Positions 11,276 through 59,324 of a stretch of 64,000 nucleotides of DNA are shown piece by piece. Each line of letters begins with the position of its first letter. The stretch's first letter is position 1. Source of the stretch: Squalus acanthias (taxonomy: Eukaryota); the NCBI GenBank assembly GCA_030390025.1, contig CM059432.1, forward strand, positions 35,156,001 to 35,220,000, written 5' to 3'. Both the position numbers and the translations under genes were made by a program. Under the pieces are notes generated by a model. The model worked only from the letters and a program-made list of their open reading frames with translations, searched no databases and was not told the origin of the DNA.

Positions 11276-12280
11276 TCAGAAGCACTTGCGATGGACTATG
11301 GAGGGCCCTGACTCATCATACTCCTGCTTGGTGATCCACATTTGCTGGAAGGTGGAGAGAGAAGCCAAGATGGAGCCACCGATCCACACTGAATATTTCC
11401 TCTCGGGGGGAGCAATGATCTTAATCTTCATTGTGCTCGGAGCCAAGGCCGTGATTTCCTTCTGCATTCGATCAGCCATACCTGGAAACATGGTGGATCC
11501 ACCAGCCAGGATAATATTTGCATAGAGATCGCTCCTCATGCAGCTTTCACTCGCCTTGATGCTGTCATTGACAGTCTCATGGACACCTGCTGATGGCATT
11601 CCCAAGAAGGATGGCTGGAATAGAGCTTCTGGACATCGGAAACGTTCATTGCCGATGGTGATGACGTAACCATCAGGAAGTTCATAGCTTTTGTTCAGGG
11701 AGGAAGAAGAAGCAGCCATGACCATCTCCTGGTCATAATCAAGAGCCACATAGCAAAGGTCCTCCTTGATTTTTTGTGCAACGAATCTCTCGGCAGCTGT
11801 GATGAAGTGGCACCCATGGTGAATCAAACTCTCCATGAAGTAGTCATTGAGCTCCCTACCAGCAAAGTTTAGACGTCTAATGCTATCAGATACCATATAG
11901 CCATCATTGACTGACATGGCATAGGTCACACCATCACCACAGTCCAACACGAGGCCTGTGGTGCGGCCACTTGCATACATCGAGAGTTGACCAGTGACAG
12001 CAACATAGAATCTTGGTAGACTAAAATTCTCAAACATCATCTGAGTCATCTTCTCCCGGTTTGCTTTGGGGTTCAGAGGTGCCTCCGTGAAAAGAACAGG
12101 ACACTCTGCTGGGTTGACTTCCAACATATTGTAGAAGGTGTGGTGCCAGATCTTCTCCATGTCTTCCCAGTTGGTCACAATCCCATGTTTGATTGGGTAC
12201 TTGGAGATCCAAATGTCTGGTCTGACCTTGGCTTCATCTCCAACACAGTGGTCTTTTGGACCTGTTCTGACCATGGCATC
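11276..12280 (-). CDS. Divergent actin-like gene, coding exon 2 (last exon); full protein 370 aa
   Basis: Open 332-aa actin frame plus Asp-Ala from acceptor TTTTCTACTCTAG|GATGCCATG (exon starts 12280); ends [11 protein letters not shown]; about 70% aa identity to the paralogue at 51250-52254. Confidence 0.93.
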
Positions 12281-12302
12281 CTAGAGTAGAAAAGAAAGCA
12301 TT

Positions 12303-12458
12303 ATTGTTTATCCTCCCCTTTCCCTATTCTATCATTCATCCTCCTCTTTTCCTACTCTATTATTTATCTCCCCTTTCCCTATTGTTTATCCTCCCCTTTC
12401 CCTACTCTATTGGTTATAGTCCCCTTTCTCCACTCTATCATTTATCCTCCCCTTTCCT
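12303..12458. repeat. Pyrimidine-rich intronic minisatellite (TTTATCCTCCCCTTTCCCTA-like units), continuing at 15782-15945
   Basis: Repeated units on both sides of the LINE at 12459-15781. Confidence 0.7.
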
Positions 12459-13996
12459 AGGTATTGAATCAGTACCCAACAAAGGCACACCCAGCCCAGT
12501 CGACCCTGCAAAGACCTGTCCACTAACAGCTTTGGACTGGTGCCAAAGTTGGGACAGCTGTCCCACATACCAGCCAAGCAACAGCCCGACATAGTCTTAC
12601 TGAAAGAATCATATCAGCCAATGTCCCAGACTTCTCCATCACCATCCCTGGGTACATCCTGCCTGTTGGGCAGGACAGACCCTCCAGAGGTGGAGGCACG
12701 GTGGTACAAAGTTGGGGAGGCGGTGGTGCTGGGAGTCCTCAACATTGACTTCTGACCCCATCAAGTTTCATGACTTCAGGTCAAACATGGGCATGGAAAC
12801 CTCTTGCAGATTATCACCTACTGCCCTCCCCAGCTGATGATCCAGAAACACTAAGGGTAGCAAGGGCACAGTTTAGACATCTAATGCTATCAGATACCAT
12901 ATAGCCATCATTGACTGACATGGCATAGGTTAGGGTGGGGGGACCAATGTACATCATCAAGTGTGGCTCAATAGTACCACCACTGACCGAGCTGGCTGAG
13001 TCCAGAAGGGCATAGCTGCCAGACTGGGCTTGTGGCAGATGGTGAGAGAACCAACATGAGGGAATTATCTCACTAATCTACCTGTCGCAGATGCGTCTTT
13101 CCATGACAGTAATGGTAGGAGTGACCATCACACAGTCCTTATGGAGACCAAGTCCTGTCTTCACACTGAGGACACTCTCCATCATGTCATGTGGTACTGT
13201 GCTAAGTGGGATTGATGAAGAACAGATCTAGCAGCTCAAAACTGGGCATTATTGAGGCGCTGTGGGCCATCAGCAGCAGCAGAATTGTAAACCACCACAA
13301 CCTGTAACATCATGGCCCAGCATATCCCTCACTCCTCCATCACCATCAAGCCAGACGACCAACCCTGGTTCAATGAGCAGTGTAGAAGAACATGCCAGAA
13401 GCAGCACCTGGTGTACTCCTGAAAATAAGGTGCCAACCTGGCGATGCTACAACACAGGACCGCATGCATGCTAAACAGTGAAAGCAGCATGCTATAGACA
13501 GAGCTAAGAAATCCCACAACCAACGGATCAGGTCAAAGTTCTGCAGTTGTGGCACATCAGGTCGTCAATGGTGGTGGACAATCCCTGTCCTCAACGATGG
13601 CGGAGCCCAGCAAGTGAGTGAAAAATACAAGGCAGAAGTATTCGCAACCATCTTCAGCCAGAAGTGCTGAGTGGATGATCTTTCTCGGCCTCCTCCTCAG
13701 GTCCTCACCATCATAGATGCCAGTCTTCAGCCAATTCGATTCACTCCACGTGACATCAAGAATCGACTGAGTGCACTGGACATAGTAAAGGCTATGGGGC
13801 CCGACAACATCCCGACTGTAGCGCTGAAGACCTGTACTCCAGAACTAGCTGTGCCTCTAGCTAAGCTATTCCAGTACAACTACAACACTGACATCTACTA
13901 GATAATGTGGAAAATTGCCCAGGTATGTCCTGTCCACAAAAAGCAGGACAAATCCAAGCCAGCCAATTACTGCCCCATCAGCATTCTCCCAATCAT

Positions 13997-14395
13997 AAAA
14001 AAAAGAAAGACTTGCATTTATATAGCGCCTTTCACGACCACCGGACGTCTCAAAGCGCTTTACAGCCAATGAAGTACTTTTGGAGTGTAGTCACTGTTAT
14101 AATGTGGGAAATGCGGCAGCCAATTTTGGGCACAGCAAGCTCCCACAAACAGCAATGTGATAATGACCAGATAATCTGTTTTTGTGATGTGGATTGAGGG
14201 ATAAATATTGGCCAGGACACCAGGGATAACTCTCCTGCTCTTCTTCAAAATAGTGCCATGGGATCTTTTACATCCACCTGAGAGAGCAGACGGGGCCTCG
14301 GTTTAACATTTCATCCGAAAGACGGCACCTCCGACAGTGCAGCACTCCCTCAGCACTGCACTGGAGTGTCAGCCTAGATTTACGTGCTGCAGTCC
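13997..14395 (-). mobile_element. Deu-domain SINE (SacSINE1/AmnSINE1-like)
   Basis: Reverse complement carries the recalled Deu core CCGTCTTTCGGATGA..AAACCGAGGCCCCGTCTGC..AAAGATCCCATGGCACTATTT..CAGATTATCTGGTCATTATCACATTGCTG. Confidence 0.8.
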
Positions 14396-15263
14396 CTACA
14401 GCACGTAAAATAATTAAAGGAGTTGTCAACAGTGCTATCAAGCGGCACTTATTACCAATAACCTGCTCACCGATGCTCAGTTTGGGTTCCACCAGGACCA
14501 CTCAGCTCCTTATTACAGCCTTGGTCCATATATGAAGACAGGAACTAAAAACCAGAGGTGAGGTGAGAGTGACTGTCCTTGACATCAAGGCAGCATTTGA
14601 CCGAATGTGGCACCAAGAAGCCCTAGTAAAAGGTCAAGTGAGATCAGAGAGAAAACTCTACAGTGGTTGGAGTCATACCTGACACAAAGGAAGATGGTTG
14701 TGGTTGTTGGAAGTAAATTATCTCAGCCCAAGGAGATCGTTGCAGTATCCTCGGCCCAGCTCTCTACTGCTGTTTCATCAATCATCTGCCCTCCCTCATA
14801 AGGTCAAAAGTGGGACTGCCCACTTATATGACGATTGTAGAATGTTCAGCTCCATTAGCAATTCCTCAGATAATGAAGAATTCCATGCCTGCTTGCAGCA
14901 AGAACTGAACAACGTCCAGGCTTGGACTGATACGTGGCAAGCAACATTCGCGCCACATAACTGCCAGGCAATGTCCATCTCCAACGAGAGAGAGTCCAAC
15001 CACCTCCCCATGACATTCAGTGTCTTCACCATCACCAAATCCTCCACAATCAACATCCTGGGGTTTACCATTGAGCAGAAATTGAACTGGACAAGCCACA
15101 TAAACACCATGACTACTAGAGCAGGGCAGGGGCTGGGTATTCTGCGGTGAGTGGCTCACCTCCTGACTCCCAAAACCTCTCCACTACCTAGAAGTCACAA
15201 GTCAAGAATGTGATCAAATACTCTTCACTTGCAGCTGCAACAACACTCAAGAATCTCAACACT

Positions 15264-15628
15264 GGAAACAAGTGTAGTGGTTATGTTCCTGGACTAATAA
15301 TCCACAGTACTGAGTTTAAATTCCTCCATGGCAGTTTAAGAATTTCAATTCAGTTTCAAAAATTTGGAAATAAAAAGCTGGTATCACTAAAAGTGACCAT
15401 GAATCTGTCAGATTGTTGTAAAAATCCAAATGGTTCACTAATGTTCTTAGGGAAGGGAACCTGCCCAGTCTGGCCTATATGTGACTCCAGTATCACACCA
15501 AAGTGGTTGACTCTTAACTGCCCACTGAAATGGCCTAGCAAGCCACTCAGTTGTATCAAACATGGCAACTAGGAATGGGCAATAAATGCGGCCTTGCCAG
15601 TGACACTCACATTTCAAGAATGAAACAA
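15264..15628 (+). mobile_element. tRNA-derived SINE sharing the 3' tail of the second LINE family
   Basis: GTAGTGGTTATG..CTGGACTA head; tail GGGCAATAAATGCGGCCTTGCCAG; second copy at 54559-54910 on the minus strand. Confidence 0.65.
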
Positions 15629-16344
15629 AACACCATCCAAGAAAAAGCTGTCTGCTTGATCGGCACCACATCCACTCGCTTAAACAACCACTACCTCCAC
15701 CATCAACATACAGGCAATACTATCTACAGGATGCACTGCTGCAACTCGCCAAGGCTTCGTTGGCAGCACCTTCAAAACCCTACTCTGTCCTTTATATTCC
15801 CCTTTCCCATCTCTATCCTTTGTATTCCCCTTTCCCATCTCTATCCTTTGTATTCCCCTTTCCCTATTCTAGCCTTTATCCTCCCATTTCCCTACTCTAT
15901 CATTTATATTCCCGTTTCCCTACTGTAATTGTTTTTTCCCCCTATTTTAACTCCTTGATGCTTCTGTTTCCCACAATGCACACTCCTCTGGTCAGGAGAC
16001 CAGAATGACATAGGCTTAGTACCTGGCCACAGTCTTTCAATTTTGCCCCATCATGAACCAGCAGGAGGTGTGAGTCAAGCCCTTTTCCCTATTTCCTCCT
16101 CCTTCCCTGTCCTCACCCTCAATTGGCAGACCATCCAGAGGCCCTTCTGAGAATTGGTCAGTACTGTCCAGCACTGTATGGATGCAAGTAAACATTTCAA
16201 GTCAAAGAGGGAGAGCAATGGGAAGGGGGAAACTACAGTTTACACCACCAACAACAGAAGGACACTGAACCCTTTCCACATACAGACAGACTGGCACAAC
16301 AGTCCAAATCGCCAACCAGAAGAAAATTTAAGATGAAATTTGTT

Positions 16345-16820
16345 CTTTTTTTTAATTCGTTTATGGGATGTGGGCATCGCTGGCAAGGCCAGCATTTATT
16401 GCTCATCCATAATTGCCCTCGAGAAGGTGGTGGTGAGCCGCCTTCTTGAACCACTGCAGTCCGTGTGGTGAAGGTACTCCCACAGTGCTGTTAGGGAGGG
16501 AGTTCCAGGATTTTGACCCAGCGACAATGAAGGATCAGCGATATACTTCTAAGTCAGGATGGTGTGTGACTTGGAGGGGAACTTGGAGGTGGTGGTGTTC
16601 CCATGCGCCTGCTGCCCTTGTCCTTCTACGTGGTAGAGGTCGTGGGTTTGGGAGGTGCTGCTGAAGAAGCCTTGGCGAGTTGCTGCAGTGCATCTTGTAG
16701 ATGGTACACACTGCAGCCATGGTACGCTGGTGGTGGAGGGAGTGAATGTTTAAGGTGGTGGATGGGATGCCAATCAAGTGGGCTGCTTTGTCCTGGATGG
16801 TGTCGAGCTTCTTGAGTGTT
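16345..16820 (-). mobile_element. 3' end of second-family CR1/L2-clade LINE
   Basis: [37 protein letters not shown]; tail GGCCTTGCCAGCGATGCCCACATCCCATAAACGAATTAAAAAAA. Confidence 0.85.
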
Positions 16821-16861
16821 CTCTTAAAGTATTTCAGTTTTGAGCAACTTATAAAGTTTAC

Positions 16862-16969
16862 CTGGTGTTGGGGCGTTCCCACAACAGAGGGAAACACAGC
16901 TCTGGGAGCATCCTCCCCTGCAAACCCGGCCTTGATCATCCCAGTTCCATTATCTACAACCACATCCAT
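16862..16969 (-). CDS. Divergent actin-like gene, coding exon 1 ([36 protein letters not shown])
   Basis: Acceptor TTTTCACACAG|GTTCTGAGTCATG upstream (exon starts 16979), donor CAG|GTAAAC at 16861; phase-0 join to 12280 restores a colinear actin. Confidence 0.92.
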
Positions 16970-17204
16970 GACTCAGAACCTGTGTGAAAAGACACAGATA
17001 TAAAAACACAAAGTGGCTACGTGTGGGCAGGTGAGAGCAGGCAAGACAGAGATTGACCTTCTCCAGCTCTCTGAGAGTTTTATCCGTCTTCAAAAGCTTT
17101 TATTTCTCACTTTTAGCATTAGCGGCTGCGCAGCAAATTTAAAGGGGTCGCGCGCCTTAAATAAAACGTAGAGGGAACATTGGTACTGAGAGAGTGCTGC
17201 ACTT

Positions 17205-18633: not shown

Positions 18634-20125
18634 ATAAGAATATAAGAACATAAGAAATAGGAGCAGGAGTAGGCCATTCGGCCCATCGAGCCTGCTCCTC
18701 CATTCAATACGATCATGGCTGATCTTCTACCTCAACTCCACTTTCCTGCCCGATCCCCATATCCCTTAATTCCCTTAATATCCAAAAATCTATCAATCTC
18801 TGTCTTGAATATACTCAACAACTGAGCCTCCACAGCCCTCTGGGGTAAAGAATTCCAAAGATTCGCCACACTCTGAGTGAAGAAATTTCTCCTCATCTCA
18901 GTCCTAAATGGCCAACCCCTTATTCTGAGACTGTGACCCCTGGTTCTAGACTCCCCAGCCAGGGGAAACATCCTCCCTGCATCTACCCTGACAAGCCCTG
19001 TAAGAATTTTGTAAGTTTCAATGAGATCACCTCTCATTCTTCTAAACTCTAGAGAATATAGGCCTAATCTACTCAATCTCTCCTCATAGGACAATCCCCA
19101 CATCCCAGGAACCAGTCTGTTGAACCTTTGTTTCACTCCCTCTATGGCAAGTATATCCTTCCTTAGGTAAGGAGACCAAAACTGTACACAATACTCCAGC
19201 TGTGGTCTCACCAGGGCCCTATACAATTGCAGTAAGACATCTTTACTCTTATACTCAAATCCTCTTGTAATAAAGGCCAACATACCATTTGCTTTCCTAA
19301 TTGCTTACTGTACCTGCATGTTAACTTTCAGTGATTCGTGTACAAGGACACCCAAGTCCCTCTGAATACCAACATTTTCCAATCTCTCACCATTTAAAAA
19401 ATACTCTGCTTTTCTATTTTTTCTACCAAAGTGGATAACTTCACATTTCTCCACATTATATTCCATTTGCCATGTTCTTGCCCACTCACTTAGCCTGTCT
19501 ATATCCCCTTGAAGCCTCTTTGCATCCTCCTCACAACTTACATTCCCACCCAGCTTTGTATCATCAGCAAACTTGGATATATTACATTTGGTCCCCTCAT
19601 CCAAATCATTGATATAGATTGTGAATAGCTGAGACCCAAGCACTGATCCTTGCGGTACCCCACTAGCTACAGCCTGCCAACCCGAAAATGACCCGTTTAT
19701 TCCTACTCTCTGTTTTCTGTCCGTTAACCAATCCTCAGTCCATGCTAGTACATTACCCCCAATCCTATGAGCCCTAATTTTGTTTAATAACCTCTTGTGT
19801 GGCACCTTATCGAATGCCTTCTGAAAATCCAAATACACCACATCCACTGGTCCCCCCTTATCTATTCTGTTAGTTACAACCTCAAAAAACTCCAACAGAT
19901 TTGTCAAACATGATTTCCCTTTCATAAATCCGTGTTGATTCTGCCCAATCCTATTATTATTTTTCTAAGTGCCTTGTTACCACGTCCTTAATAATAGATT
20001 CTAGCATTTTCCCTACTACTGATGTCAGGCTAACTGGTCTGTAGTTCTCCGTTTTCTCTCTCCCTCCTTTCTTAAATAGTGGGGTTACATTTGCTACCTT
20101 CCAATCCACGGAAACCGTTCTAGAA
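18634..20125 (-). mobile_element. 5'-truncated CR1 LINE
   Basis: ORFs 18732-19283, 19305-19925, 19957-20169 are consecutive ORF2 pieces ([24 protein letters not shown]); (CATAAGAA)n tail. Confidence 0.9.
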
Positions 20126-29010: not shown

Positions 29011-32000
29011 TGTAGTATATGTGAGTAGAACAAAGGTCAGAGACACGATGAGTTGCTAGTCAAGGTGCTTGTTTACTAGGCCAGAGCGAACTGAGCATGC
29101 TCATACTAAACCATGTGATAAACCATGTGGTAATACATTACACTGCTTTCCCCTTAAAAAAAATGTGCATATTCCCCTCTCAAATACAACAAAACTATGG
29201 CCCCACCTTTCCCAGCATTACATGTACCACACAACAAAACTCCTGACTTTTTTTCTTTTAAATGAACTACAAATCCAGTTTAATAACAGGTTTGAGGAGC
29301 CTTCCTGATCTCCTTACACAAGGTTTTGGTGTTGAACCAATTTCGTGCTGTTTTGTTCTGGTTCCGAACTCAAAGATGATCCTGTTTCTATCTCAGATTT
29401 GTTTGAACCTGGTACTTCAGTTTCTGAAGTCTGAACGGAGTCAGACTCATGTATGTGTTCATGATCAAGTGGTTCAAGATTACGTCTTGGTTCATCTCTA
29501 GCAGAGATCATTTGATCTACATGAACACTTCAGATGTTGTTACCAATTTCAATCAAATATCTCTTGGTTCCACCAACCTCTACTATGATTCCTATATCCC
29601 ACTTGTGTGAACTCGACTTGCCAGGTGGACTGAGAATACGAGCACGCTCGTTTTGTCTGAGACTGCGTTCTTTCCGATTGCTGTCATAATAACGTTTCTG
29701 ACTCAACTGTTTCTGTTCATCTCTTGAGGCCAAATTTGGTTGAACAAGACTCAATCGTGTTCTCAATGTCCTCTTCATCAAGAGTCCTGCTGGGGTATAT
29801 CCAGTTGTAGAGTGCTGAGTAGTTCTGTACTTCAGCAAGAAATTTGCCAAACGTTGCTTCATGCAGAGTCCCGAACAATCCTGCAACTACTGCTTTTTGA
29901 GAGCTTTCTTTCTATTCTGACTGACCTTTCAGCTGCTTTGTTTGAAGCTGGATGTTATGGTGGAACGAGAGTGTGTTTGATACTGTTCCATTTCATGAAC
30001 TCTTGGAATAGAGCAAAATGGAACTGAGGGCCATTGTAAGAAACAAGATCTTCAGGTAAGCCATGACATGTGAAAATAGACCTCAACTCACCTTAGGTAT
30101 GTTCAGTTGTAGTATTTGAACCCATGTCTTTCACTTCAATCCACTTTGAGTGACTATCTACAAGTACCAGGAAATAATCATTTGCTTTCTCAAAGAAGTC
30201 TACATGTACTCTCTGAAAAGGTCTACTTGGCCATGACCAGGGTTGTAGTAGAGTTCTGGGTGGTTTGTTTCTGTAATTTTGGCAAACGCTGCATTTGCTG
30301 ACAAGTGATTCAAGATCACTGTCCAATCCAGGCCAGTAAACAAACCTTCTTGCAATTGATTTCATACTGACGATCCCTGGATGTTCAGTATGAAGTTCGG
30401 CCAAAATTCTATCTCTCAAAGAAGTAGGTACCACCGCTCTGTTTCCCCACTTGATACAACCTTGCTCACAAGACAATTCAGTACGATGGTTATGGAATGG
30501 TTTCAACTCTGTGTCCAGACACTGATCAGTCCATCCATTCAAGGTGTTTTCATGCACTCTTTTCAGTACTGAGTCTTTTTGAGTCTCATTTGCAATCTCA
30601 GTTGCATTCACGGGAAAGTCTTTGTCAACTGCACCTAGCGTGAAAATCTCACCTTCACTCCCAACACATGAATCTTTATGTGGCAACCTGGACAAAGCAT
30701 CTGCAGTTGCGTTCTGCTTTGAAGTACGATATTCAATCGTGTAGTCATATTGTGACAACAACACTGCCCAACGTTGCATTCTCGATGCGGCCATTGCAGG
30801 GATGGCAGATTTGGGCCCCGATATTGCTAGGAGCGGTTTGTGATCGGTTATCAGGGTAAACTTTCTGCCGATCAGGAACTGTTGGAATTTCTTGATTCTA
30901 AACACGAGTGCTTCCTTTTCAATTTGTGCGTAGTTTCTTTCGCTCTTTGTGAGGGTTCGTGATGCTAACGCGATTGGTTTCTCTTGGCCGTCATCCATTA
31001 TGTGGCTTATGACAGTTCCCACACCATAGCTAGAAGCATCACATGCTAACTTAAGCTCACGCTGTGTCATAGTGCACAAGTAGAGCATCGCTAGAGAGAC
31101 TTCTCTTACAAGCGTCGTAAGCTTCCTGTTGTGCTTTTGTCCACTTCCACTGGACATCCTTCTTGAGGAGCTCGTGCAATGGAGCTAACATGGTCGCTAA
31201 CTCAGGTAAGAAACATGCGTTGTAATGGACCATTCCAAGGAAAGATCTTAACTCAGACACGTTCTGTGGCTTTGGAGCATTCCTTAACTGGTTGCAAGCC
31301 ATTTGCATCAACTTTCAGACCAAGGTACACAACCTCGGGCTGCACAAAAGTACATTTGCTCCTTTTCAATTTGACATTGTGGGAATTAAACCTTTGAAGT
31401 ACTATATCAAACTCTTCCAGATTTTCTTCCTCACTGCTTGTTGCGATCAGCACATCGTCTTGATTGCATAAGCAATTTGGAACTCCTTGCAAAATCTTAT
31501 CCATCGTAGCCGGGAAGATTTTGGGGGAGGACTTTACACCACACGGCAGCTTGGTGTATGAGTACAGTCCCTTGTGTGTGTTGATAGTGAGATACTGTTG
31601 ACTCTCTTTGTCAACATTCAGCTGAGCGTAAACGTGCGACAGGTCAAGCTTAGAAAAGACCTTTGACCCAGAGAGTGCTGCATACAAATCTTGCGATGTA
31701 GGTAATGGGTACTGCTCATCGTCAACTGCTTGGTTGATAGTAACTTTGTAGTCACCGCACAAGCGTACAGTTTTGTCTGCTTTGGGCACTACCACAATCA
31801 GGGTAGCCCATTCACTTTTGTCAGTTTTTACTAGCACTCCGTTCTCTCTCAGTTTCTCTAGCTCTTCCTCCACCTGACTTTTCAACACATAGGGGACTGG
31901 CCTTGCCTTACAATAGATAGGCTTTGTATTGGACTAGATGCGGATATGCACATCATACCCAATGATGCCCTCATAACTGTCTGAGAACATGCTTTCATAC

Positions 32001-36144: not shown

Positions 36145-37260
36145 AACATAGATGTAGAAAAATAGAAGCAGGAGTAGGCCATTCATGGCTGATCCTCTAT
36201 CTCAATACCATATTCCCGCTCTTTCCCCATACTCCTTGATGCCTTTTGTGTCTAGAAATCTATCTATCACCTTCTTAAATATATTCAGTGACTTGGCCTC
36301 CACAGCCTTCTGTGGTAGAGAATTCCACAGGTTCACCACCCTCTGAGTGAAGAAATTTCTCCTCATCTCAGTCCTAAATGTCCTACCCCGTATCCTGAGA
36401 CTGTGACCCCTCGTTCTAGACCCCCCAGCCAGGGGAAACATCCTCTCTGTCTAGCCCTGTCAGAATTTTATACGTTTCAATGAGATCCCCTCTCATTCTT
36501 CTAAACTCTAGTGAATACAGGCCTAGTTGACCCAATCTCTCCTCATACGACAGTCCTGCCATCCCAGGAATCAGTCTGATGAACCTTCGCTGCACTCCCT
36601 CTATGGCAAGTATATCCTTTCTTAGGTAAGGAGACCAAAACTGCACACAGTACTCCAGGTGTGGTCTCACCAAGGCCCTGTATAGCTGTAGTAAGACATC
36701 CTTGCTCCTGTACTCAAATCCTCTTGCAATGAAGGCCAACATACCATTTGCCTTCCTAACTGCTTGCTGCACCTGCACATTTGCTTTCAATGACTGGTGT
36801 ACAAGGACACCCAGGTCCCTTTGTATATCAACATTTCCCAATCTATCACCATTTAAATAATACTCTGCCTTTCTGTTTTTCCTACCGAAGTGGATAACTT
36901 CACATTTATCCACGTTATACTGCATTTGCCATGTATTTGCCCACTCACTCAACTTGTCTAAATCGCCTTGAAGCCTCTTTGCATCCCCCTCACAACTCAC
37001 AATTCCACCTAATTTCGTGTCGTCAACAAACTTAGAAATATTACATTTGGTTCCCTCATCCAAATCATTGATATATATTGTGAATAGCTGGGGCCCAAGC
37101 AGTGATCCCTGTGGTACCCCACTAGTCACCGCCTGCCACCCCAAAAAAGACCCATTTATTCCTACTCTCTGTTTCCTGTCTGTTGACCAATTTTCAATCC
37201 ATGCCAGTATATTACCCCCAATCCCATGTGCTTTAATTTTGCACACTAACCTCTTATGTG
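36145..37260 (-). mobile_element. 5'-truncated CR1 LINE
   Basis: ORF 36416-37303 (GVPQGSLLGP, FVDDTK) and 36202-36441. Confidence 0.9.
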
Positions 37261-37261
37261 A

Positions 37262-38280
37262 ATCATAATCACCCCATAAACTTCTATATTCCAGGGAATA
37301 CAAGCCTAGTTATATAATTTCTCCTCATAATCTAACCTTTGGAGCCTTGGTAACATTCTGGTGAACCTCCGCTGCACCCCTTTACAAATCCATGTTGTCT
37401 CTCTCTAATCAGCTCAAATCTCTCTATGTGCTCAATCACTCTGTCCTTAATTGTAAATTCCAATAACTTCCCCACAACATGAGTTAGACTAACAGGTCTA
37501 TAATTTCCTGAGCTCTCTCTCTCGCCTTTCTTAAATAATGGAGTTACAATTGCAATTTTCCAATCTAAAGGGAAAATTTTAAATCGAGAGAGCTTTGGAA
37601 GATTATGGCTAAAGTATCTACAATTTCCTTCACCTACTTCCTTTAAAACCCTAGGGTGGAAACCATCAGGTCCTGGGGATTTGTCAGTCTTTAGTGCTAT
37701 TATTTTTTCTGATACTGTTTTCTTGCCTACATTAACTTTAGTGAGTTCCAGTCCTTGATTCATTACTAGTTTCCCTGGAATGTCAGGTATATTATCCTCT
37801 TACTCTACTGTGAGCAATATTACCTGCATCAGTTTTTAAAGGGCCCACATTATTCCTGACTACATTTTATCTTCTAATATAATTGTAAAAATTATAGGAT
37901 GATTTGATAGAGGTGTTTAAAATTATGAAGGGATGGGAAGGATGGGACATGATAGATAGAAATTTGTTTCCAGTGATTGAGGGGTCTGGAATGAAGGGAC
38001 ATGGGTATAAAATTAAACATGAAAAACTTAGGACAGAGAGCGGGAGAAATGGTCTTTTTTTTTATGTGGTTGTGAGGCTGTGGAATGCACTATCAGAGAT
38101 TGAAGCAGAGATCATGTCAGCATTTAAGAATAAGCTAGATGGGTGGTTGAAGGGAGATCAAGGGATATGGGAAGAGGGCGGGTACATAGGATTAGGAATA
38201 CTGCTTGTGTGGAGGATAAACACCAACACGGACTAGTTGGTTCGAACGACCTATTCCCGTGTTGTAATTTCTATGTACTT
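37262..38280. mobile_element. Older CR1 fragments (- 37262-37890; + 37895-38280)
   Basis: KSPGPDGFHPRVLKE..GNYRPVSLT on minus; LIEVFKIMKG..VVRLWNAL on plus. Confidence 0.7.
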
Positions 38281-38569: not shown

Positions 38570-41295
38570 TGAAACTGGGCTCAGTCGCGCCCATTTTCTG
38601 GGTACTATAAGTGCCCTTAGCGTTCCAAAATGGCGTCCGCAGCGCATTTGCACACTTCTGACGCAAAGCGCCCCGGACGCCATCTTGGTAAAGAAGTTAG
38701 CACGCGCACTTAACGTCCGCCGGAAGTATGCAAAGCAGGCAGATCATGAAGCGTTGACGCCAGCGCTGCCATTTTGGAGCTCAATGATCCGGCTAATTCC
38801 CTGTCTTAACCTCGCACAGCTGAACAGGCGTTAAACAGCATGAAGGACCCCCCAACAGTGCCATTTAATGGGATCATCAACTACTTACAGGTTAGTTGCT
38901 GGTTTATTTCTTCTGGCTGTTGCTACAATTCTACCCGTTTTTGGTGTTTTCCATAGTTGTTTCAAGTTTCAAAAGTCTACAGGGAGTGGTGTGGCAGGTG
39001 CTAAAGTACTTTTTGCTGACTTCAAGGCTTCTGCACAAACTAGTTGCTCCTAGACATGGGTGCACTAGTAGGCCTTCCTCTTGGAATCAAGCAAGACTGG
39101 CAGAATGAGCAGAGGATACGCTGAGCAGGACAAGCTGCTAGAAGAGGGAGGGAGTAAGGAGAGATGGGCTCTCGGCAGGAGGCCCAGAGCGATCAGGGGA
39201 CAATTCTCCTACCTGAACCTCAGCGATGACCAATGTTTGAGATGTCTGCGCTTCACTAAGGAGGTCGTCACTGAAATTTGCAAACTGCTGTAGCCACAAC
39301 GCCAACCTCAGAGAAGGGCAAGGACCGCATTGCCAGTGGCTGTGAAGGTGACCGTAGCCATGAACTTTTGTGTGTCTGGCTCCTTCCAGGCTGGTGCTGG
39401 AGATATTAGCAACATCTCACATTTGGCAGTCCACTGTTGCATAAGGGAGGTCACCGAGGCTCTCTATTCAAAGAGAGATAACTTCATTTCATTCCCTCTT
39501 GCCAGAGAGAAGCAGGCGGAGTGTGCACAAGGGTTTGCAAGGATTCCAGGCTTTCCCTGGTGCAGGGTGCCATTGACTACGCGCACATTGCTTTGCATGC
39601 GCCTCATGTTAACTCTGCCATGTACGGAACCGAAAGGGATTCCACTCCCTCAGCGTGCAGTTGGTTGTGACCATCAGCAATGCATCATGCAGGTTAATGC
39701 CCGGTATCCTGGCAGCAGTCATGATGCGTTCATTCTGCAGCAGACAACTCTGCTAGTTGCATTTCAGCCACCACGCCAAACCAAAGGGTGGCTACTGGGC
39801 GACAAGGGCTATTCGCTGATGACATGGCTCATGTCTCCGGTTCGCAACCCACGCACACGAGTGCAGCATGCAGACAATGAAAGCCATGCTGCCAGAAGAA
39901 ATCTGATAGAGCAGACTATTGGCGTGCTGAAGCAATGCTTCCGCTGCCTGGACTGCTCTGGAAGAGCTCTGCAGTACTCGGCTGAGCGGGTTTCAAGATT
40001 TGTGGTGGTAAGCTGCATAGCCTTTGCCATCGTGAGGAAACAGCCCTTGCCATCACCTATCAGGCGAGAAGCTGAGGGGCAGGAGTATAAGGAGAGGATG
40101 AGGAAGATGATGAGATAGAACAGGAGGAAGAGGAAGGGAGGCTGCAACCTAGACAGCACCTTTCTGCCCGGGCTGTACGTGAAGAACTAATTCAAATGTG
40201 ATACCAGTAACCTCAACCCCAATACCCCATTCACCAACCTTACCTTCCCTCTGTCACTGACCATCACACCGTCCTCTTGGCCACAATGCAAAAATAAAAG
40301 CCAACACAAAATATGCATTCCAAATCAAATTTATAAATTAAATCATGCTATATTACATACAAACTTAAAATAATCACCCCTGTGCATTTCCTTAGTACCT
40401 GTCTTCCGTGTGCCTTTGCCTGTCCGAGTGCTCCTACGAAGTGCTACCCCAATGGCTGCAGCATGGCTGGTGGAAGGCTGCTGATTTTCAGTGGAGGAGA
40501 CTGCAGATAGCCTTGGAGGACGACCTCAAGCAGCTCCGGGCCTAGAAGGCCTGGCTTCAGACTGCACCATCTCGGCATGGGTGGCAGCAGTCTGGGCTAG
40601 CTGGCTGAAAGGCAACAGCAAGGGCACTGGCGGAGTGGCAGGGGTGGGAGGACGAATGCTGTCATCCTGAGAGAGGACAATAAGTTCGTGCTCCATGGAG
40701 TCACTGCCACTCCCCTGAGGCAGCGCCTCAGCAGTCCTACTAAACTGTTGGAGGACAGATTACTGGACTGCTGCGACACCTCTTTGAACACTGGTATCCA
40801 CAGCCATGATGGCAGCAGTCTTAACTTGCATGACAGCAGTCTGAGCTTCCACTGTAGCACTCAGACTTTTGGTGGAAGCTGCTTGTGTTGCAATGGAAGC
40901 TGAGACATCGGCCATCAAACGCTGCATCATGGTTGGTTCCACAAATGTATTGATGGAGTTGACCACCACTTCCATGCTGAAAAGGATGGGCTCCAAGCTC
41001 TGCACAAAGACCTGTGCCAAGTTGGTGCCCAGACTCCTCCATGCTCCTTGACATTGACCACAGGCTTTCTGGCAGGCTTCCCAATGCACCAAGTATTTTG
41101 TTGTGTACACCCATCAGCCTTCTTCTGTAGCCTGGCCCATCGAAATCCTCATGAGTCCTCTGCAGCAGAGCTGGCACATGTGCTATCTTTGCCCCCTGCC
41201 CTTGCTGCAGTGTACTTGTGCCCGATGTCTCACCACGTGCAGATCCCACCTCTATGCTATCCTCTAAGATACGCACAGTGGCAGTATCTGAGCTG
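38570..41295 (+). mobile_element. Harbinger/PIF transposon remnant: DDE transposase pseudogene (+, about 39105-40200) and convergent second ORF C-terminus (-)
   Basis: LSDDQCLRCLRFTKEVVTEIC; VKVTVAMNF..GSFQ; NARYPGSSHDAFIL; WLLGDKGY; IEQTIGVLKQCFRCLD (HARBI1-like); stop at 39291 and frameshift near 39555. Confidence 0.85.

Positions 41296-51249: not shown

Positions 51250-52254
<1,005 letters not shown>

Positions 52255-59186: not shown

Positions 59187-59324
<138 letters not shown>

Follow-up and report, generated by a model that had tools for sequence, protein, structure and literature searches.

A divergent actin gene conserved across sharks, with altered catalytic and filament-contact residues

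Results

The divergent actin gene

The 64,000-nucleotide stretch of Squalus acanthias DNA analysed here (the window; GenBank assembly GCA_030390025.1, contig CM059432.1, positions 35,156,001 to 35,220,000 of the forward strand) carries on its reverse strand an actin gene that departs from conventional actin at its catalytic residues, at its filament contact residues and in lacking the acidic N-terminus. This divergent actin is an offshoot of cytoplasmic-type actin, present as a single-copy gene in sharks of both major lineages, and the gene is intact and conserved in 12 sharks, evolving much faster than canonical actin yet under constraint. A canonical-type actin gene on the same strand of the window, hereafter the neighbour, served for comparison. 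The divergent gene comprises the following features, numbered from the first letter of the window (nt, nucleotides; UTR, untranslated region).

11276..12280, minus strand: large exon, 334 codons and the stop codon TGA (11276-11278), residues 42-375 in beta-actin numbering
12280, minus strand: large-exon acceptor, ...ctactctag/GAT, pyrimidine-rich
12281..16861, minus strand: intron of 4581 nt, phase 0, with GT...AG ends and a polypyrimidine tract; contains remnants of repeats and transposons
12866-12930, minus strand: 65-nt exon copy within the intron, 63/65 identical to 11862-11926 (codons ~160-181)
16862/16861, minus strand: exon 1 donor, CAG/gtaaac, with the GT at 16861-16860
16862..16969, minus strand: exon 1, ATG at 16969, 36 codons, starting MDVVVDNG, with a T14 phosphate loop and ending at the codon-41/42 intron position
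16970..16981, minus strand: putative 3' end of a 5'-UTR intron (AG at 16981-16980) and 10 nt of 5' UTR

When joined by script, the exons gave 1113 nt, that is, 370 codons and a stop with zero internal stops, in agreement with the two exons, GT/AG splice sites and uninterrupted frame of 370 amino acids that the initial annotation had proposed. The intron falls after codon 41, which we take to be the position common to vertebrate actin genes. With an in-frame TGA two codons before its ATG, this gene model has a genuinely short N-terminus. The motif cag/GTTCTGAG(T/C)CATGG, ten bases upstream of the ATG, is common to the divergent gene and the neighbour, and the shared cag/GTTCTGAG suggests that the divergent gene may also have an intron in its 5' UTR. 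Parts of the coding-region intron match repeats elsewhere in the window, and the 65-nt exon copy, which has the same orientation and lies some 1 kb upstream of the large exon, may stem from a minor duplication nearby or be the scar of a repair event.

Queries for the database, PDB, Pfam and genome searches were either the large-exon product, covering residues 42-375, or orthologues of full length, while full-length alignments of the divergent actin were scripted from the window sequence. The large-exon product belongs to the actin family, matching Pfam Actin PF00022 with an E value of 8.4e-111 (370.9 bits) and PDB beta-actin chains with an E value of 4.4e-160. A search of sequencing runs with the unconverted part of the large exon returned best shares of 0.10-0.22, in runs whose kinds were guessed or unknown and none of which was listed as RNA.

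Residues were numbered on a 375-residue beta-actin (P0107), whose odd C290 differs from the canonical R that the neighbour has. The window protein is 71% identical to this reference without any indel, with 106 of 370 residues changed overall. Among the changes are S14T, Q137T, H161Y, R39Q, E270P, R62P, D288C, E195H, Y166N and H173D; the D-loop is rewritten, and the protein starts at the equivalent of residue 6 and thus without the acidic N-terminus. D11, K18, D154, D157, H73 and K113 are retained. Checked against beta-actin, the substitutions listed in the initial annotation, its D-loop text and its retained D11, K18, D154, D157 and H73 were all verified.

Orthologues in other sharks

Orthologues were found in 11 other shark species of both Squalomorphii and Galeomorphii (Heptranchias, Pristiophorus, Heterodontus, Carcharodon, Cetorhinus, Mustelus, Scyliorhinus canicula, S. 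torazame, Stegostoma, Rhincodon and Hemiscyllium). They are 368-376 amino acids long, 71-87% identical to the window protein and 60-74% to beta-actin, and have T14, non-Q137, P62, P270 and RPDIW in common. The large-exon search had returned eight shark proteins (70-88% identical over the large exon) closer than any canonical actin (about 71%), and a cluster look-up added three further species within the same clusters; two cluster members are short models of 332-334 residues, one of them from a species that also has a full-length model. With a profile of the family, the eight shark cluster representatives scored 754-794 bits against about 649 for canonical single-domain actins, and only long, fused or tandem models fell between the two groups. 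The most diverged part of the protein (residues 30-200) gave the same picture when used as query, with only sharks, among the candidates scored, above the canonical level. In public shark annotation the family goes by automatic names such as 'actin-like', 'actin-2-like', 'actin-3-like' and 'actin, cytoskeletal 1-like'.

A maximum-likelihood tree of 23 rows was built from nine family members, 11 actin copies of the S. acanthias genome and four canonical references, leaving out the remaining copies of that genome and the three later-found species. The nine sampled members group together, apart from the canonical references and the other copies of the S. acanthias genome, with 100/100 support and a stem of 0.27 changes per site. 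Within this clade Galeomorphii form a monophyletic group (97/96) in which Heterodontus is the sister of Galeoidea (100/97), and the window gene groups with the squalomorph sequences; the galeomorph part agrees with NCBI taxonomy. At its base the tree collapses into a polytomy with cytoplasmic-type actins. Since the orthologues come from both major shark lineages and form one clade, the gene predates the split of those lineages. The end branch of the window copy (0.059) lies within the 0.047-0.11 of the other members, and four of its changes are private, at sites invariant elsewhere in the family, against 0-11 in the other species. The earlier proposal of a lineage-specific paralogue under selection, and not a young pseudogene, is upheld by the orthologues in 11 species, the fully supported clade and the lack of an excess of private changes.

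Catalytic site and residue census

The 12 family sequences were compared site by site, a residue being counted as derived and fixed when shared by at least 11 of them. By this measure the fixed sites comprise 177 canonical and 42 derived ones (the latter including a few that are reference quirks or common to the neighbour), while 25 sites are never canonical but variable and 124 are mixed. The derived and fixed sites are densest in subdomains (SD) 2 and 3, at 9/37 and 20/104, compared with 5/145 in SD1 and 8/89 in SD4. P62 and P270 are present in all 12 sequences and C288 in 11, and residues 61-65 read RPDIW throughout. Including the window protein, each of the derived states T14, D42, R61-P62-D63, W65, K72, non-Q137, P270, E286 and C288 is found in 11-12 of the 12, and the fixation of P62, C288, P270, E286 and RPDIW in 11-12 of them fits the suggestion that the protein underwent directed remodelling rather than random decay. 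Ten of the 12 models begin at the same position as the MDVVVDNG start. The window copy differs from the family majority in having T and not P at 137, and S and not C at 285.

The nucleotide-binding loops and the adenine pocket are preserved: D11, G13, G15, K18, G156, G158, K213, G301, G302, M305 and K336, which we take to be the nucleotide-binding positions, are kept in 12 of 12 sequences, and the pocket otherwise holds conservative replacements (S14T, with T14 in all 12, T303S and Y306F). The catalytic residues present a different case. Q137 is kept in none of the 12 (P in ten, T in one, S in one), H161 in Mustelus only (Y in eight, S in two, A in one), and D154 is replaced by G in one species. 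Among 186 other actins, a non-random set of top matches, Q137 is present in 181 and H161 in 183 of 184, and none lacks both; among the actin and actin-like copies inspected in the S. acanthias genome, both are absent, besides the window gene, only from two ACTRT2-like loci. In actin, Q137 is reported to position the nucleophilic water, which D154 and H161 activate; the Q137A mutant is reported to hydrolyse more slowly, and the triple mutant Q137A/D154A/H161A to have no measurable ATPase (PMC9646518, PMC10062479).

Because neither the phosphate loops nor the adenine pocket vary, the shark proteins would be expected to bind ATP or ADP (adenosine tri- or diphosphate); with Q137 absent throughout, H161 retained in a single species and D154 missing from one, the hydrolysis machinery appears to be lost. 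We infer that nucleotide binding is retained and that polymerisation-triggered hydrolysis is lost or strongly reduced. At the level of residues, the idea of a nucleotide-binding, hydrolysis-impaired actin is thus strengthened by the wider sample, with invariant binding sites, Q137 in 0/12 and H161 in 1/12. The H161Y change proposed alongside it is present in the window protein and is not family-wide.

Filament contacts

Contacts between subunits of filamentous actin (F-actin) were taken from a list reported in bioRxiv 10.1101/309534. Of the 27 contact residues named there, the window protein has 13 changed, compared with 106 of its 370 residues as a whole (Fisher p 0.027). Each of the four named cross-strand contacts (K113-E195, E270-R39, E270-T203 and G268-H173) has a changed partner, the window protein having H195, P270 with Q39, A203 and D173; residues 39, 173, 195 and 203 vary among the 12 species, a pattern that looks like relaxation. 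Along the strand, the hydrophobic core is mostly kept (Q41 12/12, M44 9/12, I64 12/12, Y143 12/12, G168 12/12, Y169 9/12), as are D244 (12/12) with R290 (11/12) and E205 (12/12), and the plug residues F266-M269, the barbed-end cleft, the C-terminus and K113 are also retained. The charge pair K61/E167 is preserved as R61/D167, whereas R62/D288, now P62/C288, and R39/E270 have lost both partners in the window protein. These states are suggestive of a lengthwise face that was rebuilt and then frozen, not abandoned, with its polar part (61-65, 286 and 288) replaced. The initial annotation had filament contacts missing: the four cross-strand contacts are indeed altered, while contacts in general are not simply lost, since the lengthwise core and D244-R290 remain.

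Gene conversion at the 3' end

The end of the large exon has a history of its own.

11279..11473, minus strand: gene-conversion tract, codons ~311-375, nearly identical in nucleotide sequence to the canonical-type cluster copies; the corresponding region of the neighbour is 51253-51447

Codons ~311-375 of the window copy are a recent conversion tract from a canonical-type gene nearby, with 3 nt differences from the neighbour and 2 from a second cluster copy, compared with about 35% divergence just upstream. At its upstream end the tract is sharply bounded near codons 300-310, and F306 and M309 immediately before it still belong to the divergent gene. At the other end the tract stops before the stop codon; the two genes end in different stops (TGA vs TAA) and have unrelated 3' flanks. 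Outside the tract, over codons 42-281, the two genes differ at synonymous and nonsynonymous proportions (pS, pN) of 0.53 and 0.22, for a pairwise nonsynonymous-to-synonymous ratio (dN/dS) of 0.28. The C-terminus, which had been described as kept whole, is intact, but in this species it is largely this recent tract; in the orthologues it is near-canonical in most and diverged in the orectolobiform ones. Homogenisation of the 3' end by conversion would mislead read mapping and estimates of rate.

The neighbour and the surrounding actin cluster

The remaining features of the window are the two exons of the neighbour and reading frames of transposon type.

51250..52254, minus strand: large exon of the neighbour, a canonical-type gene with two coding exons; comparison gene and likely conversion partner
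59196..59321, minus strand: exon 1 of the neighbour, 42 codons, with the acidic N-terminus MGDDEIAAL
7349-10532, 18732-19964, 30093-31933, 36416-37309 and 39294-40118: transposon reading frames

The large exons of the divergent gene and the neighbour align with 231 of 332 residues identical, 101 differences and 0 gaps, which confirms the count of 101/332 differences without indel first made from the window; their first exons are 86% identical in nucleotide sequence. All other reading frames of the window are of transposon type (reverse transcriptase, RNase H/integrase zinc domain, DDE_Tnp_4 transposase), and several of them recur between the flanks and introns of both actin genes.

In its own genome (3.7 Gb) the divergent actin is single-copy, the next best match being 71% identical. 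On the same contig there are at least 16 actin copies with residues 42-375 uninterrupted by introns, 15 of them fully open and one with a stop; four, including the divergent gene, lie at 35.17-35.25 Mb and 12 at 0.04-0.49 Mb, while the canonical multi-exon actin genes of this genome are on other contigs. The residues T358, I297 and S303 of the local cluster are also found in the divergent actin. Shared exon structure, shared residues and adjacency point to a cytoplasmic-type copy of the cluster as the source of the divergent gene, which most likely arose by tandem duplication within an actin cluster that keeps only the codon-41/42 intron; recurrent gene conversion blurs the signal of this origin.

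Several other copies on the contig merit description. One of the four genes at 35.17-35.25 Mb, located 4.6 kb past the end of the window (35224618-35225607, plus strand), is a canonical-type copy that has an in-frame TAG and lacks two codons, and is a true pseudogene within this four-gene cluster. The region at 0.27-0.49 Mb (copies L004-L008 and L010) is a tandem array of canonical-type actins with residues 42-375 in a single exon, and those at 458047, 467198, 476074 and 485650, about 9 kb apart, have identical translations. The region at 0.04-0.21 Mb (L011-L013 and three more matches) holds a second divergent actin subfamily with six open copies of 331 codons; the three that were translated, L011-L013, have a 3-residue deletion at about 199-201, G146D and C-termini ending in RKRF, HKRF or RKSF, and they retain Q137 and H161. 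These copies may be another remodelled actin group.

Relation to known actin families

The initial annotation compared the gene with the mammalian testis ACTL7 and ACTRT genes while proposing an independent origin. Separate intronless loci of the ACTRT/ACTL type, 47-62% identical to beta-actin, are found in the same genome and bear out that independence; orthology with ACTRT/ACTL was rejected on the 71% identity to beta-actin and the presence of the intron. Like the divergent actin, ACTRT1-3, ACTL7A/B and their shark counterparts are lineage-retained, fast-evolving paralogues with the actin fold, and the ACTRT2-like loci also have P137 and a non-histidine residue at 161. Unlike it, the ACTRT/ACTL-type loci are intronless and lie on other chromosomes, and the ACTRT2-like ones lack D157 and H73, whereas the divergent actin has an intron, 71% identity and all nucleotide-binding residues. 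The two ACTRT2-like loci, L018 (C2:194266797-194267906) and L015 (C3:131717623-131718723), are about 50% identical to beta-actin and have P137, D161, F/Y157 and R73; for L018 the nearest cluster bears the name 'actin-related protein T2-like', a lead to the identity of this locus. Q137P in the two loci is convergent with the shark family, so that this catalytic state has arisen independently in recognised actin-related proteins as well.

ACTBL2 has the catalytic residues and an identity of about 90% to beta-actin. It resembles the divergent actin in being an offshoot of cytoplasmic actin with a raised substitution rate, and has lost introns relative to ACTB. A fish 'beta-actin-like 2' protein (P0199, one sequence) is 62% identical over residues 30-200 and no closer to the shark family than canonical actins are. 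Relatives of ACTBL2 are reported as far back as cartilaginous fishes (PMC7870945). In Drosophila, Arp53D and the Arps (actin-related proteins) of the obscura group are reported as divergent actin or Arp paralogues that arose independently in particular lineages and were kept for specialised roles (PMC7038667, PMC8291977), to which the shark gene may be likened; these testis-enriched Arps differ in phylum, origin and the changes they carry, and germline expression is reported for them, while the shark gene is known from its sequence. Engineered actins with Q137A or Q137A/D154A/H161A lack the same catalytic positions (PMC9646518, PMC10062479), but they are otherwise canonical, whereas the shark protein is a natural version with a rebuilt surface as well.

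No description of the shark group turned up in the literature searched, although a paper on new vertebrate actin groups may bear on its novelty. Divergent actins confined to one lineage are a known class, of which this gene appears to be an undescribed member.

Discussion

The features described above are best accounted for by a shark-specific, Arp-like specialised actin that would bind ATP, be crippled in hydrolysis and assemble in a non-standard way, a reading to which we give a probability of about 55%; its gene-level parts are observed, and the biochemistry is inferred from residues. In such a protein, which would fold as actin, the bound ATP or ADP would probably act as a structural cofactor, as it does in several actin-related proteins, and the standard two-stranded, ATP-hydrolysing filament would not be built. 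Its barbed face, with the cleft and the C-terminus, and the rebuilt lengthwise surface could engage actin filaments, actin-binding proteins or the protein itself. Possible roles would be that of an end-binding or terminating subunit, or of a component of some short assembly unlike the standard filament, within a restricted cell type; the male germ line as the site of action would be a guess by analogy with the mammalian ACTRT/ACTL proteins and the Drosophila testis Arps.

Several observations weigh against this reading. Chlamydomonas NAP1 and Giardia actin are only about 60-70% identical to conventional actin and can still polymerise. The enrichment of changes at contact residues is modest (p 0.027), the 27 contact residues are about as constrained as the whole protein (15/27 fixed vs 219/368), and the contrast between lateral and lengthwise contacts is one of small numbers and no more than suggestive. 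Hydrolysis may be reduced and not abolished, given that Q137A alone merely slows it and Mustelus keeps H161. Gene conversion confounds any reading of C-terminal conservation in this species, and AATAAA is absent from the first 1.1 kb 3' of the stop codon (10163-11275, minus strand), where the first ATTAAA comes 1113 nt past the stop, compared with 220 nt in the neighbour. Finally, no ray or chimaera orthologue scored above the level of canonical actins with the profile or with residues 30-200, a provisional result from one protein collection in which the 8000 top word-sharing candidates were scored. ACTBL2, for its part, is reported to be able to polymerise (PMC7870945).

This last point leads to a possible, though less probable, alternative, in which the protein is a specialised structural isoform that still forms filaments, alone or with canonical actin and in approximately F-actin geometry, and has slower hydrolysis and altered partners, like ACTBL2 or the divergent protist actins. 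Its identity of 71% to beta-actin without indels would agree with this, as would the retained lengthwise core, D244-R290, E205, K113, F266-M269, cleft and C-terminus, and K61R with E167D preserves a charge pair; moreover, Q137A actin is reported still to polymerise while hydrolysing slowly (PMC9646518), and ACTBL2 is reported to polymerise (PMC7870945). Such an isoform would have to accommodate the change in four out of four named cross-strand contacts, whose partners at 39, 173, 195 and 203 vary in the family, the loss of R62-D288 and R39-E270 on both sides, and a joint loss of Q137 and H161 that is seen in 0 of the 186 other actins compared. An unlikely, bolder form of the specialised-actin reading takes the same residues further: the shark protein would be an ATPase-dead actin with a lengthwise interface coevolved with itself (R61-D167, A43-M170, P62-C288) and the cross-strand interface abandoned, probably kept for the whole history of the crown group, and would make an orthogonal, non-treadmilling assembly, single-stranded or of new geometry, or serve as a dedicated filament-end subunit, apart from the canonical pool.

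It is quite unlikely that the protein is a strictly non-polymerising subunit of a stable nuclear or cytoplasmic complex, whose rebuilt SD2/SD3 surface would bind a non-actin partner. Relaxed catalysis with kept nucleotide binding is typical of Arps held in complexes, and the shark family displays this combination of relaxed catalytic and kept nucleotide-binding residues; the derived residues of SD2 and SD3 are also frozen across 12 species, as would be expected for a new specific interface. But no partner is known, and the residues of lengthwise actin-actin contact are kept (M44 9/12, I64, D244 and E205 12/12, R290 11/12), although these could also serve folding. Very improbable is a young or unitary pseudogene, or a gene-conversion chimera, with its frame open by luck. 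The absence of a canonical poly(A) signal near the stop, the conversion tract at the 3' end and the true pseudogene copy 57 kb away are what such a gene might have, yet intact orthologues with the same derived residues occur in 11 other species of both major lineages, in a clade with 100/100 support whose galeomorph part agrees with NCBI taxonomy, and the window copy has just four private changes at family-invariant sites. When the neighbour's large exon was given random changes (substitutions only), its frame stayed open in just 9 of 20000 simulations at 233 substitutions, the observed distance; with half as many substitutions it did so in 354 of 20000. The pseudogene reading is rejected, being contradicted at the level of the family by the intact orthologues in the 11 other sharks.

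In practical terms, the dozen shark annotations of the 'actin-2/3-like' kind form one distinct orthogroup, to be kept apart from cytoplasmic actin when expression or phylogeny is studied. Few eukaryotic proteins are as constrained as actin, whose ATPase plays a central part in the turnover of filaments; sharks have kept the fold and the nucleotide pocket, discarded the Q137/H161 pair, and remodelled one face of the molecule that was afterwards frozen. The divergent actin would thus be a natural experiment on the role of a nucleotide that is not hydrolysed and on which filament contacts are dispensable. It also bears on the birth of actin-related proteins, as its 71% identity to beta-actin would represent an earlier stage than that of the ACTRT/ACTL genes.

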